Source: an uncultured Actinomycetes bacterium (GTDB lineage: Bacteria; Actinomycetota; UBA4738; HRBIN12). Taken from it: a DNA stretch of 64,000 bases. Positions 18,147 to 32,570 of this stretch are shown here, one piece after another. The notes beneath the pieces are model-generated. The model was not told the DNA's origin and searched no databases. It saw only the letters and a program-made list of their open reading frames with translations. The stretch spans positions 1,102,421-1,166,420 of the forward strand of contig CAVTIC010000001.1 in the NCBI GenBank assembly GCA_963734685.1, read 5' to 3'. How positions within the stretch are numbered: position 1 is the stretch's first letter; every line of letters starts with the position of its first letter. Made by a program: the position numbers and the translations under genes.

Positions 18147-18788
18147 CTACCCGGGAGTCGACGAGGCCGGCGGAAGGCTCGCGCGCGCGGCTCGCCGGGC
18201 GAGGCCGAGGCGGCCGAGCTCGAGCGAGGCGAGCTGCTCGTGCCGTCCGGAGTGCAGGTCGCCCCACGGGTCGGTCGTCACGGAGGACAGGCGGACGTAC
18301 GAGAAGCGGGTTGCGGCCCGCATCGCCAGGTAGCCCTCGATGCCGGGGTCGCTGCCGTCGAGGGCCTTGCCGATGCGCCGGCGCTCGCGCGCGAGCGGCG
18401 CCCTGATCACCAGCCACAGCGCGATCAGCGGCAGGCTGGGTCCGAGCGCGACGACGAGGCCGATCAACAGCGACACGTTGAAGATCGCGTCCTTGCTGGC
18501 CTCACCCTTGTCCACCGTGCCCTGTCCGATCGCGTCGATCTCGTCGGCGATCGCCTGGACGCCGCCGCCGATCAGTGGCACGTCGGCGAGCCCCTCGAGC
18601 GCACCCGCCGCGTTCGAGACGCCCTCGCCCGCACCGATCACGCCGTCGCTCAGACCGCTCAGCTCGTTCACCGTGCGCCCGAGCGTGTAGCCGACGGCGC
18701 ACCACAGCAGGAGCCAGAGCACGAGGATGACGTCGATCGTTCGGGATGTGCGGTGCGACACGGCGGCCTCCGGTCGGGGCGTGGACAA
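18147..18788 (-). CDS. Hypothetical membrane protein
   Basis: 213 aa, 2-3 TM helices, no recognisable motif; the opposite-strand ORF is Arg-rich junk, so the minus strand is preferred. Confidence 0.4.
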   Translation of the reverse strand: MSTPRPEAAVSHRTSRTIDVILVLWLLLWCAVGYTLGRTVNELSGLSDGVIGAGEGVSNAAGALEGLADVPLIGGGVQAIADEIDAIGQGTVDKGEASKDAIFNVSLLIGLVVALGPSLPLIALWLVIRAPLARERRRIGKALDGSDPGIEGYLAMRAATRFSYVRLSSVTTDPWGDLHSGRHEQLASLELGRLGLARRAARASLPPASSTPG

Positions 18789-18852
18789 CGGGCATCCTAG
18801 GCCCGGCCTCGGCCCCGCGCGAGCCCGGGGTTCGGGCCGTTGGACCCCGAGA

Positions 18853-20664
18853 TCAGGCCAGGGCGTCGGACACGGTGCTCCGGAGGGCGTCGCGATGCTT
18901 CAGTGCGACGACCGGGTCGACCGCCACCTCGATCACCTGCAGGCCGCCCGCCGCCGACGCGTGGTCGAGCGCGCGAGGGAGATCGCTCGCGCGCTCGACC
19001 AGCGTGTGAGCCGCTCCCGCGGCCCGGGTCAGGGCGCCCAGGTCGGCGCCGTGCGGGGTGACGAACAGCTCGCGATGCTCAGGCAGGTCCCGCTGTGGCA
19101 ATAGTGAGAACACCTCACCGCCGCCGTTGCGCACGACGACGAACATGCAGTCGAGTCCTCGCCGAGCGTTCCATGCGATCGCGCCGAGGTCGTGGAGGAA
19201 CGTGAGGTCGCCCAGCAGGGCGACGGTGGTCGCGGCGGACCACTCGACGGGACCGCTCCTCGGCCCGGCCGCCGAGAGGCCGAGCGCCGTCGATACCTGG
19301 CCGTCGATGCCGCTCGCGCCGCGGTTCGCGAGCACCCGGAGACCGTTGCGGGGCGCCATCGCCAGGTCGAGGTCGCGGATCGGCGTGGAGTTGCCGACGA
19401 AGAGCGTGCCGCCGTCGGGGATCGACGCCGCGACGTCGCGCGCGATCCTCGGCTCGAACGGCTCGTCGATGCCATCGAGGAACCCGTCGAGCGCCTCTCG
19501 CGCCCGCCGGTCGGCACGGCGCCACGCGTCGATCCAGTCGGCGGGAGCGGGATGGAGCCTGCGCGTCCACATCGCACCGGTCTCGTCGTCCGGGTGGTTA
19601 CCGAGCACGCCGATCGCGCCGTCCTGGTCGACGGGTCGGTCGGCGAGGGCGCGCCCCAGTGCGTCGGGGTCGACCGCGATGCGCCAGGTGGCCAGGCGCT
19701 CCGGATCAGGGTCCAAGTGCCAGCGGTCGGCCACCACCAGGCGCTCGGCCGCCGCAACGAACGACTGGGTCACCCTGGTCGTCGGAGCCGCACCGACTTG
19801 GATCACGACGTCGGGGCGGTGCTGCCGGCCCCAGGTCACGTCGCCGATCAAGGACTGACCTGCAGTGAGACACCATCCGGGCAGACGGGCGGTGGAGGTC
19901 GGTTCCGCGAGCACGGGCCAGCCGAGGGTCTCCGACCAGAACGCCGCCTCGCTCGAGACGTCGCCCGGCCACGCGCCCATCACGACGGCCCCGCGTGCCC
20001 CGGAGACGAGCGTGGCAAGGCGGTCGGCTTCCTCGACGGTGAGTTCGGCTTCGGGCCGGGTCGGCAGGTCGAGCGTCTCGCCGCTCGGAGCCGGCAGCTC
20101 GAGGTCGAGCGAGGGGCTGAGCGGTTCCTCGAACGGGCAGTTCACGTGCACCGGCCCGACGGGGTCCGCGCGCGTGGCTTCGAGAGCTTCCCGGGCGGCC
20201 TGACGCCACCACGCCTCCTGGCCCGTGGCCTCGGGTACCGGGAGATCGAGGTTCCCGCGGACGTACCCGCCGTAGAGGCCAACCTGATCGATCGTCTGGT
20301 TGGCTCCGGTGCCTCGGAGCCGTGGCGGGCGGTCGGCGGTCAGCACCACGAGCGGCACGCGAGACTGCGACGCCTCGACGATGGCCGGGAGGAACTCGGC
20401 GGCGGCGGTGCCGCTCGTGCACGCGATCGCGACCGGTCGACGCGCGGCCCGGGCCAGTCCGACCGCGAAGAAGGCACTCGATCGCTCGTCGAGGTGCACG
20501 CGCACGTCGATGTCGGGGTGTCGGGACAGGGCGAGCGCCAGCGGGGTCGAACGGGAGCCGGGAGACAGGCACGCGTCGCGGAGTCCGCCCGCCACGAGCC
20601 CATCGACGAGCGCCCAGGCGCACTCGAGGTTGAGGTCGGCGATACCCATCACACACCACGCCAC
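18853..20664 (-). CDS. menD: 2-succinyl-5-enolpyruvyl-6-hydroxy-3-cyclohexene-1-carboxylate synthase (TPP-dependent)
   Basis: N-terminal 'LVDGLVAGGLRDACLSPGSRSTPLALAL...IACTSGTAAAEFLPAIVEASQSRVPLVVLTADRPP' (TPP enzyme N-domain, MenD-like); alternative start MGIADLN at 20649 would give a 4-nt overlap with the menA stop. Confidence 0.85.
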   Translation of the reverse strand: MAWCVMGIADLNLECAWALVDGLVAGGLRDACLSPGSRSTPLALALSRHPDIDVRVHLDERSSAFFAVGLARAARRPVAIACTSGTAAAEFLPAIVEASQSRVPLVVLTADRPPRLRGTGANQTIDQVGLYGGYVRGNLDLPVPEATGQEAWWRQAAREALEATRADPVGPVHVNCPFEEPLSPSLDLELPAPSGETLDLPTRPEAELTVEEADRLATLVSGARGAVVMGAWPGDVSSEAAFWSETLGWPVLAEPTSTARLPGWCLTAGQSLIGDVTWGRQHRPDVVIQVGAAPTTRVTQSFVAAAERLVVADRWHLDPDPERLATWRIAVDPDALGRALADRPVDQDGAIGVLGNHPDDETGAMWTRRLHPAPADWIDAWRRADRRAREALDGFLDGIDEPFEPRIARDVAASIPDGGTLFVGNSTPIRDLDLAMAPRNGLRVLANRGASGIDGQVSTALGLSAAGPRSGPVEWSAATTVALLGDLTFLHDLGAIAWNARRGLDCMFVVVRNGGGEVFSLLPQRDLPEHRELFVTPHGADLGALTRAAGAAHTLVERASDLPRALDHASAAGGLQVIEVAVDPVVALKHRDALRSTVSDALA

Positions 20665-28447: not shown

Positions 28448-28638
28448 CGCTCGCGCCTCCTTCAAGTGCACGGCAGTCCTCGCAGTCTAACGGTGGGGAT
28501 GCCTCGGAGCTTCCCGATCGGCTCGGTGTCGGACCCCGGTGCTAGCGTTCGAGCCGTTCTCGTACACTGCTGGGCGACCCTCAAGTCCCTACTGCTCCCT
28601 CTCGAGAGGGGGCCGTCCAGACCAGAGGAGGTGACTGG

Positions 28639-30272: not shown

Positions 30273-30299
30273 GTAGGCCGGGCTTCGCGCCCGGCCTAC
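30273..30299. terminator. Bidirectional intrinsic-terminator-like hairpin between convergent rplI and the HAD gene
   Basis: Perfect 11-bp stem 'GTAGGCCGGGC-ttcgc-GCCCGGCCTAC'. Confidence 0.55.
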
Positions 30300-30946
30300 G
30301 TCGTGGTCGGGGTCATGACGGCCGCCGGTAGCCCTCCGGGCTGGCGGACCACCACGTCCGCTGGGTGATCGTCCCGCCACAAGCTTCCCCACCCGGCCCC
30401 GACGGCGAGCGCGCCCGCGGCCCGTGCAGCGAGCATGTCCTGCTCGCTGTCGCCGACGTAGGCGGCCTCGGTCGGGTCCACGCCGAGGCGATCGCAGGTC
30501 AGGGCGATGCCTGCGGGGTCCGGCTTCGCGCGGCCCGCCTCGTCGCCGCCCGTACGCACCTCGAACCGATCAAGCAGGCCGGTCCGCGCCAGCAGGAGGT
30601 CGAGGCTGGTCACGTCGGCGCCGGTGAACAGCGCGAGCCGCAGGCCTGCACCGGCCAGCGCGTCGAGGGCTTCCTCCACGCCGGGGTAGGGGCGCATCGC
30701 GCTCGCCCCTTCGTCCAATCGACGGTGGTAGGCCGCGTGCTCGGCTTCGCTTACCGGACGACCGAGCAGGTGCTCCAGCATGCGCTCGCTGGGCCCCTGA
30801 GTGAATGACTCGACGATCTCGCCGGGGGTGAACCGAGGGCCGCCGGCCTCGAGGATCGTCTCGATGAAGCTGTTCGTGACGGGCTCCATCGAATCGAACA
30901 GCGTGCCGTCCATGTCGAAGACGACGGCGTCGATGCGGCGGGCCAT
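30296..30946 (-). CDS. HAD-IA family hydrolase (phosphoglycolate-phosphatase-like)
   Basis: Motif I 'VVFDMDGTLFDS', motif III/IV 'GDSEQDMLAARAAG'. Confidence 0.7.
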   Translation of the reverse strand: MARRIDAVVFDMDGTLFDSMEPVTNSFIETILEAGGPRFTPGEIVESFTQGPSERMLEHLLGRPVSEAEHAAYHRRLDEGASAMRPYPGVEEALDALAGAGLRLALFTGADVTSLDLLLARTGLLDRFEVRTGGDEAGRAKPDPAGIALTCDRLGVDPTEAAYVGDSEQDMLAARAAGALAVGAGWGSLWRDDHPADVVVRQPGGLPAAVMTPTTT

Positions 30947-30999
30947 GGCGCGGAGTCTACGGGGGCGATAACGTCACACCCTCGATTGAATGTCAGACG

Positions 31000-31116
31000 T
31001 GTGATTCACACTCTTCCACATGGTTTTCCACATGTGGAAAGTGCAGGTCAGGGGCGGAGTGACAAGGAATCTCGCCTCACGACCTGCACACGAGCAATCC
31101 ACAGCGGTTGTCCACT
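31000..31116. promoter_or_regulatory. Low-GC patch with DnaA-box-like 9-mers, a 16-bp perfect palindrome and direct repeats in the dnaB/HAD divergent promoter region
   Basis: 'TGTGA-T-TCACA' (31000-31010); direct repeat TTCCACATG x2 (about 31014 and 31026); palindrome TTTCCACATGTGGAAA (about 31025-31040); 'cAATCCACA' (about 31094) and 'TTGTCCACt' (about 31108) against the DnaA box consensus TT(A/G)TCCACA; about 45% GC versus about 72% in flanks. Confidence 0.45.
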
Positions 31117-31199
31117 GTCGCCCCGCGGTCCGCGGGCGTAGCGTCCCCGGGTTGAAGCACGGGTCCGCCGGCGGCGTGGGCTCCGAGGGGGAGGGGTAG

Positions 31200-32570
31200 A
31201 TGGCGCGTACGGCCGACGATGTTCGACGCTTGCCCGCGGGCGAGGGACATCGTCTGCCGCCCCACAACATGGAGGCCGAGGCCTCGGTGCTCGGCGCGAT
31301 GCTCCTGTCGAACGAGGCCGTGGCCGACGTCGTCGAGATCCTCGAACCCGATGACTTCTACCGATCGGCTCACGGCCGCATCTACACTGCGCTCCGGGCG
31401 CTGTTCGCCCGCGGTGAACCGGTCGACATCATCTCGGCGGCCGCGACGCTCGAACGTGACGGGTCCCTCGACGACATCGGCGGGCGACTCTACCTGGCCG
31501 ACCTCGCCAACGAGGTACCTACCCCCGCGTCGGCCGCCTACTACGCCGAGATCGTGTCGAAGGCGGCGCTGCGTCGTCGCCTCATCTCGGCCGCCGCCGA
31601 CATCATGGAGCGCGCCTACGCCTCGACCGACGACGCCGAAGCCGTTGCCGACGACGCCGAGCAGCGCATCTACGAGGTGGCGCGGCGCGAGGACCGCGAC
31701 GAGATGGCCGTGCTACGCGATCTGGTCGACCAGGCGATGCTCGACCTCGAATCGATCCAGACCCGCGAGTCGGCCTATACCGGTCTTCCCACCGGGTTCA
31801 TCGACATCGACAACCTCACCTCGGGACTTCAGCCGGGCAACCTGATCGTGCTCGCGGCTCGGCCGGGCATCGGCAAGAGCTCCCTCGCCGTGAACATGGC
31901 GCGCAACGTCGCCGTGGCGGGCGAGTCGGTCGCGATCTTCTCGCTCGAGATGTCGCGATGGGAGATCGGCATGCGCCTGCTCTGCGCCGAAGCACGCGTT
32001 CCCTGGGATCGCATCCGCAACAAGCGCGTCGGCCCCAACGACTGGCAGGCCGTCGTGCAGGCCGCCGAGATCCTCCACGACGCACCGCTGTCGATCGTCG
32101 ACTCCGGCAATACGAACATCGTCGACATCCGGGCCAAGGCCCGGCGCATGCGCACGGGCAAACGGGGCCTCTCGCTGATCATCGTCGACTACCTCCAGCT
32201 CATGGGGCACCCGGGCATGGGCGGGCGGCGCCCCGACTCCCGTCAACAGGAGATCGCTGAGATCAGCCGGTCGCTGAAGATGCTCGCCAAGGAGCTCGAG
32301 ATCCCGGTGATCGCGATCAGTCAGCTGAACCGCAACCCGGAGGCCCGCGCCGACAAGCGTCCGCAGCTCTCCGACCTTCGCGAAAGCGGGGCGATCGAAC
32401 AGGACGCCGACATCGTGATGTTCATCCACCGCGACGACGCCGACCCCGAGAAGAAGAAGAACGCCGAACTCGTGGTCGCCAAGCACCGCAACGGCCCCAC
32501 CGACAACATCCCGCTGGGCTTCGAGCCCTCGCTCACGCAGTTCCGCAACGGAGCCCGCGGCGCGCAGTGA
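31200..32570 (+). CDS. dnaB: Replicative DNA helicase DnaB (no intein)
   Basis: 456 aa; Walker A 'ARPGIGKSSLAVNMA', 'IVDYLQLM', 'ISQLNRNPE', 'DLRESGAIEQDADIV'. Confidence 0.95.
   Translation: MARTADDVRRLPAGEGHRLPPHNMEAEASVLGAMLLSNEAVADVVEILEPDDFYRSAHGRIYTALRALFARGEPVDIISAAATLERDGSLDDIGGRLYLADLANEVPTPASAAYYAEIVSKAALRRRLISAAADIMERAYASTDDAEAVADDAEQRIYEVARREDRDEMAVLRDLVDQAMLDLESIQTRESAYTGLPTGFIDIDNLTSGLQPGNLIVLAARPGIGKSSLAVNMARNVAVAGESVAIFSLEMSRWEIGMRLLCAEARVPWDRIRNKRVGPNDWQAVVQAAEILHDAPLSIVDSGNTNIVDIRAKARRMRTGKRGLSLIIVDYLQLMGHPGMGGRRPDSRQQEIAEISRSLKMLAKELEIPVIAISQLNRNPEARADKRPQLSDLRESGAIEQDADIVMFIHRDDADPEKKKNAELVVAKHRNGPTDNIPLGFEPSLTQFRNGARGAQ

Follow-up and report, generated by a model that had tools for sequence, protein, structure and literature searches.

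A block of about 160 bp upstream of dnaB, the gene for the replicative DNA helicase, was found to be conserved among relatives of the uncultured Actinomycetes bacterium whose DNA is analyzed here, a stretch of 64,000 nucleotides of contig CAVTIC010000001.1 (positions 1,102,421 to 1,166,420; hereafter, the window). The block is kept at a fixed distance from dnaB and contains six 9-mers with the profile of DnaA boxes. We consider, with a probability of roughly 0.6, that it is a composite control region for dnaB, in which pairs of boxes that overlap two putative promoters would be occupied by DnaA, and the transcription of dnaB would thereby be gated. The first-pass annotation had proposed a DnaA-box cluster at the dnaB promoter, outside oriC, and this proposal is supported by the conservation of the block, the local density of the boxes, and the pattern of substitutions within them.

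Conservation of the region upstream of dnaB

The element and the gene that it precedes are as follows.

30988–31147, + strand: candidate dnaB upstream control element as a whole, about 160 bp, defined by its conserved columns and fixed distance from dnaB
31200–32570, + strand: dnaB, replicative DNA helicase, 456 amino acids (Pfam DnaB_C, 2.6e-98; DnaB, 4.7e-34)

The conservation of the element was determined from two collections of sequences. The dnaB loci L081–L092 were retrieved via DnaB homologues of 72–95% identity, all of them from uncultured Actinomycetota and mostly from soil metagenomes, and nine sequences found via DnaB formed the pattern-independent set for the invariant columns. A metagenome scan with a pattern made from four invariant motifs (GGTCA, GTGACA, ACCTGC, and CAATCC) returned 76 loci. 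These four motifs are invariant by construction in the 76 metagenome loci, and for what we state on them we rely on the 13 DnaB-derived loci; the pattern put no constraint on the boxes, apart from bases 1–6 of box 4. Unless stated otherwise, the per-column counts given below refer to 82 distinct 190-nt sequences, in which DnaB-derived and metagenome loci were pooled and which come from relatives with a DnaB identity of 72–97%. More distant dnaB loci (≤ 48% DnaB identity, among the matches listed) were used as an outgroup only.

In the nine DnaB-derived sequences, 69 invariant columns fell within 30991–31146 and none further upstream. The block was present upstream of dnaB in all 82 distinct sequences, with variable flanks and a variable neighboring gene, so that the conservation upstream of orthologous dnaB genes for which the first-pass annotation had asked was strong in every relative examined. 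The dnaB start lay 129–167 nt past the motif in all loci with enough downstream DNA except L114, and none of the 76 pattern matches in the metagenomes lay beside any gene other than dnaB.

The motifs that had drawn attention to this region were all present, together with the low-GC (guanine plus cytosine) island in which they had been described.

31000–31010: TGTGATTCACA (TGTGA-T-TCACA)
31014 and 31026: direct repeat TTCCACATG, 12 nt from start to start
31025–31040: perfect 16-bp palindrome TTTCCACATGTGGAAA
31108–31115: TTGTCCAC

The drop in GC content upstream of dnaB is real, with 49.5% over 30980–31070 and 42.6% over 30985–31045, but the background of about 72% given in the first-pass annotation was too high, the value for the window being 69.6%. 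The palindromes did not hold up as conserved units. In relatives, the left arm of TGTGA-T-TCACA is variable or missing, and so is the reverse arm of the 16-mer; dimer operators of this form were therefore rejected, and the earlier suggestion that the palindrome is an operator for another regulator found no support. The units that are actually conserved are the six 9-mers, in which T2, T4, and CCACA are kept and position 3 is free.

DnaA-box-like sites and putative promoters

The six 9-mers are numbered here in the direction of dnaB.

31002–31010, + strand: box 0, TGATTCACA, weak; profile T-k-a-T-[T/C]-C-A-C-A
31012–31020, + strand: box 1, TCTTCCACA; family consensus TTGTCCACA
31024–31032, + strand: box 2, TTTTCCACA; profile t-T-n-T-C-C-A-C-A, position 3 free
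31033–31041, − strand: box 3, CTTTCCACA; abuts box 2 as the arm that forms the 16-bp palindrome
31095–31103, + strand: box 4, CAATCCACA; CAATCC.C invariant in the DnaB-derived set
31108–31116, + strand: box 5, TTGTCCACT; profile T-T-n-T-C-C-A-C-T

In the window itself, not all of these sites are as close to the consensus TT[AG]TCCACA as had been claimed. A single mismatch, as stated for all sites in the first-pass annotation, applies to TTTTCCACA and TTGTCCACT, but the other four (TCTTCCACA, CTTTCCACA on the reverse strand, CAATCCACA, and TGATTCACA) have two. Matches to TTNTCCACA with at most one mismatch showed no excess over the window as a whole (16 matches, against 12 ± 3 expected). Their local density upstream of dnaB is far higher than background: four such matches lie inside 105 bp, and the maximum reached in 300 Markov-1 simulations was two per 105-bp span. 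The sole exact TTNTCCACA in 64 kb is box 2, at 31024, and the sole tandem double box in the window (gap of 2–3 bp, at most three mismatches in total) is formed by boxes 1 and 2 (31012–31032). Two sites that match TTGTCCAC[C/G] occur elsewhere, at 18508–18516 (+ strand) and 18780–18788 (− strand), 270 bp apart on opposite strands and within a predicted coding region (18147–18899, − strand); these are probably chance matches.

The degree of conservation differs among the boxes. Box 1 had at most one mismatch to TTNTCCACA in 82/82 sequences and was a perfect TTGTCCACA in 32/82, and box 2 was a perfect TT[AG]TCCACA in 26/82. These two boxes form a co-oriented tandem pair, with a gap of 3 bp in 70 sequences and 2 bp in the other 12. 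Box 0, which sits 1 bp upstream of box 1, was of the TCCACA type in 21/82 and within one mismatch of TTNTCCACA in 18/82. Box 3 is the least conserved, with at most one mismatch in 38/82 and a loss in one subclade. Boxes 4 and 5 form a second tandem pair about 65 bp downstream, and their gap of 4 bp falls outside the 2–3 bp rule. In box 5, T1, T2, and T9 were invariant and T4 was found in 81/82, with position 3 free. The information content of boxes 2 and 5 was 1.8–2.0 bits at T2 and T4 and 0.05–0.25 bits at position 3, a pattern of constraint that is typical of a DnaA box and not of a simple TCCACA reader.

We infer DnaA as the binding protein from this signature and from the arrangement of the boxes. 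In vivo, DnaA of Escherichia coli binds almost only where two co-oriented boxes are separated by 2 or 3 bp, and its binding is weaker when a 3-bp gap is lengthened by one base (PMC11317965). Promoters with DnaA boxes, such as those of dnaA, nrdAB, purH, and other paired-box targets from chromatin immunoprecipitation sequencing in E. coli, and those of the DnaA regulon of Bacillus subtilis, have 9-mers of the TTNTCCACA type in common with the element described here (PMC11317965), as well as a co-oriented pair 2–3 bp apart over the core promoter of a replication gene. The element differs from them in that its target is the replicative helicase, in having six sites instead of one pair, in the fixed bases that extend past the 9-mer, and in its tolerance of TCCCCA.

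Two sets of promoter-like parts are interleaved with the boxes; neither these nor the other invariant motifs of the block had been noted in the first-pass annotation.

30991–30998, + strand: TGTCAGAC, half of putative P1 that resembles a “-26 element” (RecA-NDp-like); TGTC in 82/82, next base A or G in 82/82
31007–31012, + strand: CACACT, -10-like hexamer of putative P1, of which CACA and the last T are unchanged in 82/82
31136–31144, + strand: GCG-TAGCGT, with the -10-like hexamer (TAnnnT) of putative P2, about 55 nt before the ATG

We infer that P1 and P2 are promoters from their conservation, on which alone they rest because a scan with a simple sigma-70 consensus found no -35/-10 pair upstream of dnaB. 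Putative P1 reads TGTCR-N11-CACAnT, that is, TGTCR, 3 nt, a spacer of exactly 8 nt, and the hexamer. The consensus of the mycobacterial RecA-NDp/PafBC promoter is tTGTCRgtg-8nt-TAnnnT (PMC5656591), so that the invariant TGTCR and the exact 8-nt spacer to an xAnnnT hexamer are shared. A2 and T6 of the P1 hexamer fit TAnnnT; the differences are that its first base is C in all 82 sequences, that the “gtg” portion is loose (kept in about 50%), and that DnaA-box-like sites overlap it. The -10 hexamer of P1 and its predicted start (about 31019) fall within boxes 0 and 1. In putative P2, T31139, A31140, and T31144 were invariant in 82/82, and C31137 and G31138 were each found in 81/82; relative to P2, box 5 would lie at about -43 to -35, over the -35 region. 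In Mycobacterium tuberculosis, dnaB is damage-inducible and in part PafBC-dependent (PMC8151990). No pafBC was present among the 16 open reading frames (ORFs) of the window that were scanned against Pfam, and no search aimed at pafBC was made.

TGTCR-N11-[T/C]AnnnT occurs twice in the 64 kb, at P1 and at 28527, where a similar copy (TGTCGGAC-cccggtgc-TAGCGT) precedes rpsF-ssb by about 90 nt and is kept among relatives. TAGCGT is shared as the -10 hexamer by P2, by this promoter-like site of rpsF, and by a canonical RecA-NDp site upstream of dnaB in Nocardioides marmorisolisilvae (L026, at about 2790–2815: TTGTCGGTG-ggggcacc-TAGCGT), which stands downstream of the box array of that genome. The distant locus L002 has TTGTCGGTG-gttggcac-TACACA. 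Past the motif at 28527 there is a leader of about 100 nt (motif and leader, 28527–28638), cgtacactgctgggcgaccctca...gggggccgtccagaccagaggaggtg, which is highly conserved in L081, L082, L083, L088, and L089; a comparison of this rpsF leader with Rfam gave chance-level matches only and no family.

If these assignments are correct, DnaA would bind the tandem pairs cooperatively and gate the access of RNA polymerase. Repression would be the likelier direction of control, because the boxes cover core promoter positions. The supply of helicase would thereby be coupled to the DnaA status of the cell, and the site would incidentally keep part of the DnaA from the origin.

Box pairs were also found upstream of dnaB in the distant relatives. 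Four loci have tandem pairs in the orientation of dnaB.

L001: TTATTCACA-gac-TTATCCACA
L002: TTATCCACA-tgc-TTGTCCACC
L062: TCATCCACA-cg-TCGTCCACA
L069: TTGTCCACA-ag-TAATTCACA

Related box arrays precede dnaB in two Nocardioidaceae (L026 and L029), and tandem pairs in reverse orientation precede it in a member of Ktedonobacterales (L056). In a Corynebacterium metagenome-assembled genome (MAG; L004), ACCTGC-N6-TTATCCACA-ggg-TTATCCACA is located between rplI and dnaB and aligns with ACCTGC-N7-box4-N4-box5 of the window. In this alignment, box 4 corresponds to TTATCCACA in the Corynebacterium MAG and to CCGCCCACA in the Nocardioidaceae, and box 5 corresponds to TTATCCACA in both. A 15-mer of the middle of the block, GAAAGTGCAGGTCAG, recurs upstream of dnaB in Nocardioides. 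An nhmmer search of the distant loci with the block gave no full-length match, and its weak match in L004 was the module of boxes 4 and 5. It follows from the pairs in distant loci that DnaA-box pairs in the interval between rplI and dnaB are an old feature of the Actinobacteria.

Two further observations concern the distant loci. L004 contains a cluster of perfect boxes (L004:560–780) between rplI and a GH15-like gene, with TTATCCACA-ggg-TTATCCACA on one strand and TTTATCCACA twice on the other. In the Gaiellaceae loci L028 and L034, an SOS-box-like palindrome (GAACATGTGTTC or GAACATATGTTC; GAAC-N4-GTTC) lies about 150–200 nt upstream of dnaB, which suggests LexA control of dnaB in this family.

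Alternative explanations for the block

Several observations weigh against DnaA control as set out above. The TG that follows box 1 is fixed (82/82) and extends the motif to TCCACATG, and after box 2 there is a T in 69/82, a G in 73/82, and TG in about 70/82; these bases count against DnaA because known DnaA recognition does not predict a fixed flank. In one subclade (L088, L100, L101, L114, L152, L156, L164, and L165), TCCACA is changed to TCCCCA jointly in boxes 1, 2, and 4 (31018, 31030, and 31101 of the window), and box 5 keeps CCAC. Position 7 of the DnaA box is normally a strongly read base, and the variant could mean that the specificity of the protein that binds here is relaxed or altered. 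Box 4 (CAATCCACA) is invariably without T1 and T2, and its 4-bp gap to box 5 corresponds to the one-base widening that weakened binding in E. coli (PMC11317965). A third of the conserved block, consisting of the following middle motifs, is not accounted for by DnaA.

31043–31050: GC[A/T]GGTCA, invariant in the DnaB-derived set
31056–31064: GGAGTGACA, invariant in the DnaB-derived set
31081–31087: [G/C]ACCTGC, invariant in the DnaB-derived set

These middle motifs (31043–31087) form an imperfect inverted repeat in which every change affects one side only and disrupts pairing, and no covariation is seen. On the side of the promoters, the initial C of the P1 hexamer and the negative sigma-70 scan also count against the proposal. 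Lastly, the pair in L004 is inverted and lies 2.2 kb from dnaB with another gene between, and it fits a promoter-proximal role poorly because of this orientation and distance. As a separate observation, CATG occurs at the end of box 1 (31019–31022) and of box 2 (31031–31034), where it is possibly a methylation or start-site signal.

The fixed TG, the joint change to TCCCCA, and the lack of the DnaA-box TT in box 4 would all be in keeping with another transcription factor, such as a response regulator, for which the TCC[A/C]CA repeats would be operators (direct repeats with a spacing of 10–12 bp) and the likeness to DnaA boxes would be convergent. TCCACATG would then be the extended motif, and the joint change in the three boxes would reflect the co-evolution of a dedicated factor with them. 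The boxes are spaced at 10, 12, and 13 bp, which would suit winged-helix proteins bound in tandem, and a precedent is given by dnaB of M. tuberculosis, which is the same gene in the same phylum and is under dedicated transcriptional control, with activation by WhiA/WhiB2 (PMC13473873). We nevertheless regard this explanation as unlikely, since a conserved T-T-n-T ahead of the CCAC core, with no constraint on the third position, is the signature of a DnaA box, since TTGTCCACA and TTATCCACA stand at homologous positions in distant lineages, and since the gap between boxes 1 and 2 obeys the 2–3 bp rule. The motifs of MtrA (GTnAC, 11-bp repeats; PMC6265350) and WhiA (GACAC(GCC); PMC13473873) misfit the boxes, and no regulator gene is conserved beside the element.

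It is also conceivable, at a clearly lower probability, that the cluster is mainly a chromosomal site of DnaA control, either a sink of the datA/D78 type or a DARS-like site, with the control of dnaB secondary or absent. Box clusters outside oriC that modulate initiation are described for E. coli (datA), for B. subtilis (oriC-proximal clusters), and for Streptomyces (D78 of Streptomyces coelicolor) (PMC3479198). The element, which probably lies no more than tens of kb from the origin, could likewise titrate DnaA. The likeness to DARS lies in topology: read on the minus strand, boxes 3, 2, and 1 have that of the DARS1 core, which in E. coli MG1655 reads TTATCCACT-5bp-TGTGGATAA-3bp-TGTGTATTA and whose box spacing is identical in DARS2 (PMC5742627). 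In both cases there are three boxes, with one opposite to two and a 3-bp gap in the co-oriented pair (II–III), and DARS1 is itself intergenic and directly upstream of a gene of DNA metabolism, the repair gene uvrB, as the element is upstream of dnaB. The inverted and gene-separated pair in L004 would also suggest a role that is independent of orientation and distance. In contrast to DARS, the convergent boxes I and II abut here (0 bp, not 5 bp), the conservation of the inverted box 3 is poor, with a loss in one subclade, and there are no IHF or Fis sites; the arrangement of boxes 3-2-1 therefore cannot be counted as a member of the DARS family. In contrast to datA and D78, the element is tightly integrated with promoter-like hexamers, and its orientation and its distance from dnaB were fixed in the 82 sequences. 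A sink or DARS-like role is therefore retained as a secondary possibility beside the control of dnaB. A broader proposal, which we regard as doubtful, is that the interval between rplI and dnaB is an ancient dedicated locus of DnaA control in Actinomycetota and possibly some Chloroflexota, an analogue of DARS or datA with two-plus-one boxes and a damage-type promoter.

A structured 5′ leader RNA or a small RNA, whose hairpins (A, 31014–31039; B, 31041–31089) would act on the stability or translation of the dnaB mRNA, is very improbable. The sequence of the window does form two strong hairpins (z = -3.2 against shuffles), and the whole block would be transcribed if P1 is active, but no Rfam match was obtained, even at E ≤ 1, and conservation tracks the 9-mer boxes and not the helices. 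Hairpin B has one-sided T·T (14 sequences), C·C (21), and C·C (9) mismatches; its inner stem is paired in 45–60%, barely above slid controls (0.64 against 0.52–0.56). Hairpin A has 24 A·G mismatches against nine compensated pairs. The block shows neither hairpin covariation nor codon periodicity, and selection acts on it at the DNA level. Least probable of all is that the cluster is oriC, or part of a bipartite origin, beside dnaB instead of dnaA. Six DnaA-box-like sites in a low-GC island would suit an origin, the cumulative GC skew has a broad, flat minimum at about 12–38 kb that includes the site, and the position of the origin is not fixed by the window, since it contains no dnaA. Against this, no AT-rich unwinding element or DnaA-trio array lies by the boxes (31041–31199 has a GC content of 70%), the direction of the highly expressed rpsF-ssb-rpsR-rplI operon and that of dnaB are the same across the site and do not diverge from it, the skew has no sharp turn at 31 kb, and the block is short and stands at a fixed, promoter-like distance from dnaB.

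Individual candidates for the block were also compared and rejected. A 59-codon ORF runs from the ATG at 31020 to a TAG just before the dnaB ATG; its conservation peaks at third codon positions, and 11 among the distinct sequences checked have a stop at codon 13. The invariant GTGACA resembles GACAC, but the element has GTGACA[A/G] and never the canonical WhiA site GACAC(GCC) (PMC13473873), and the TCCACA boxes do not fit the GTnAC repeats with an 11-bp period that are bound by MtrA (PMC6265350). The 16-mer has one extra base per half in comparison with parS, the consensus of which we take to be GTTTCACGTGAAAC, and its reverse arm is not conserved. NrdR and LexA boxes, in what we assume to be their consensus forms, do not match the motifs of the element.

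Gene neighborhood and biological significance

The element lies in a gap of 253 bp between a HAD hydrolase gene (30296–30946, − strand) and dnaB, and one further feature was read from the sequence of this gap.

31185–31196, + strand: purine-rich candidate ribosome-binding region GAGGGGGAGGGG

The genes around it are, in order, panB (− strand), rpsF-ssb-rpsR-rplI, the HAD gene (− strand), dnaB, and an HhH-GPD glycosylase gene, followed by a tRNA gene (− strand), a trpD-like gene, dcd, a two-component pair, and dnaK-grpE...clpB. The synteny of rpsF-ssb-rpsR-rplI ... dnaB-glycosylase was kept in dnaB loci L081–L092. The glycosylase gene begins with a GTG at 32567 and thereby shares 4 nt with the end of dnaB (32567–32570), and the pairing of the two genes was kept in all relatives examined. 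The gap between rplI and dnaB is a hot spot for gene insertion, and the inserts are always upstream of the conserved element; depending on the relative, there is no insert, the HAD gene, a gene for an ankyrin-repeat protein, an MFS gene with an ArsR-type regulator gene, or an APH gene with an unknown gene. One DnaB homologue (P0083, 614 amino acids) carries an intein domain (PF14890). Mycobacterial DnaB also has an intein. No DnaA signature was found in a six-frame translation of the window, that is, within 31 kb on either side of the element, and the box cluster therefore lies outside any dnaA-linked origin.

DnaA is known to act as a transcription factor as well, but to our knowledge the gene of the replicative helicase is not among its textbook targets. 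The control of dnaB in Actinobacteria has been addressed only recently, with regard to WhiA/WhiB2 and PafBC. An array of DnaA boxes over the dnaB promoters would link the potential for initiation directly to the supply of helicase, as a form of feedback, and this link may be layered on a promoter that responds to DNA damage. The element is at the same time a candidate datA/DARS-type site in a phylum in which the control of initiation is poorly understood. If the doubtful proposal of an ancient locus of DnaA control were true, the same DNA would both set the expression of the helicase and tune the pool of active DnaA, and the locus, conserved throughout a phylum, would be without precedent outside Proteobacteria, Firmicutes, and Streptomyces. 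Similar pairs occur in cultured Nocardioides and in the Corynebacterium MAG, which makes the idea testable in cultured relatives.

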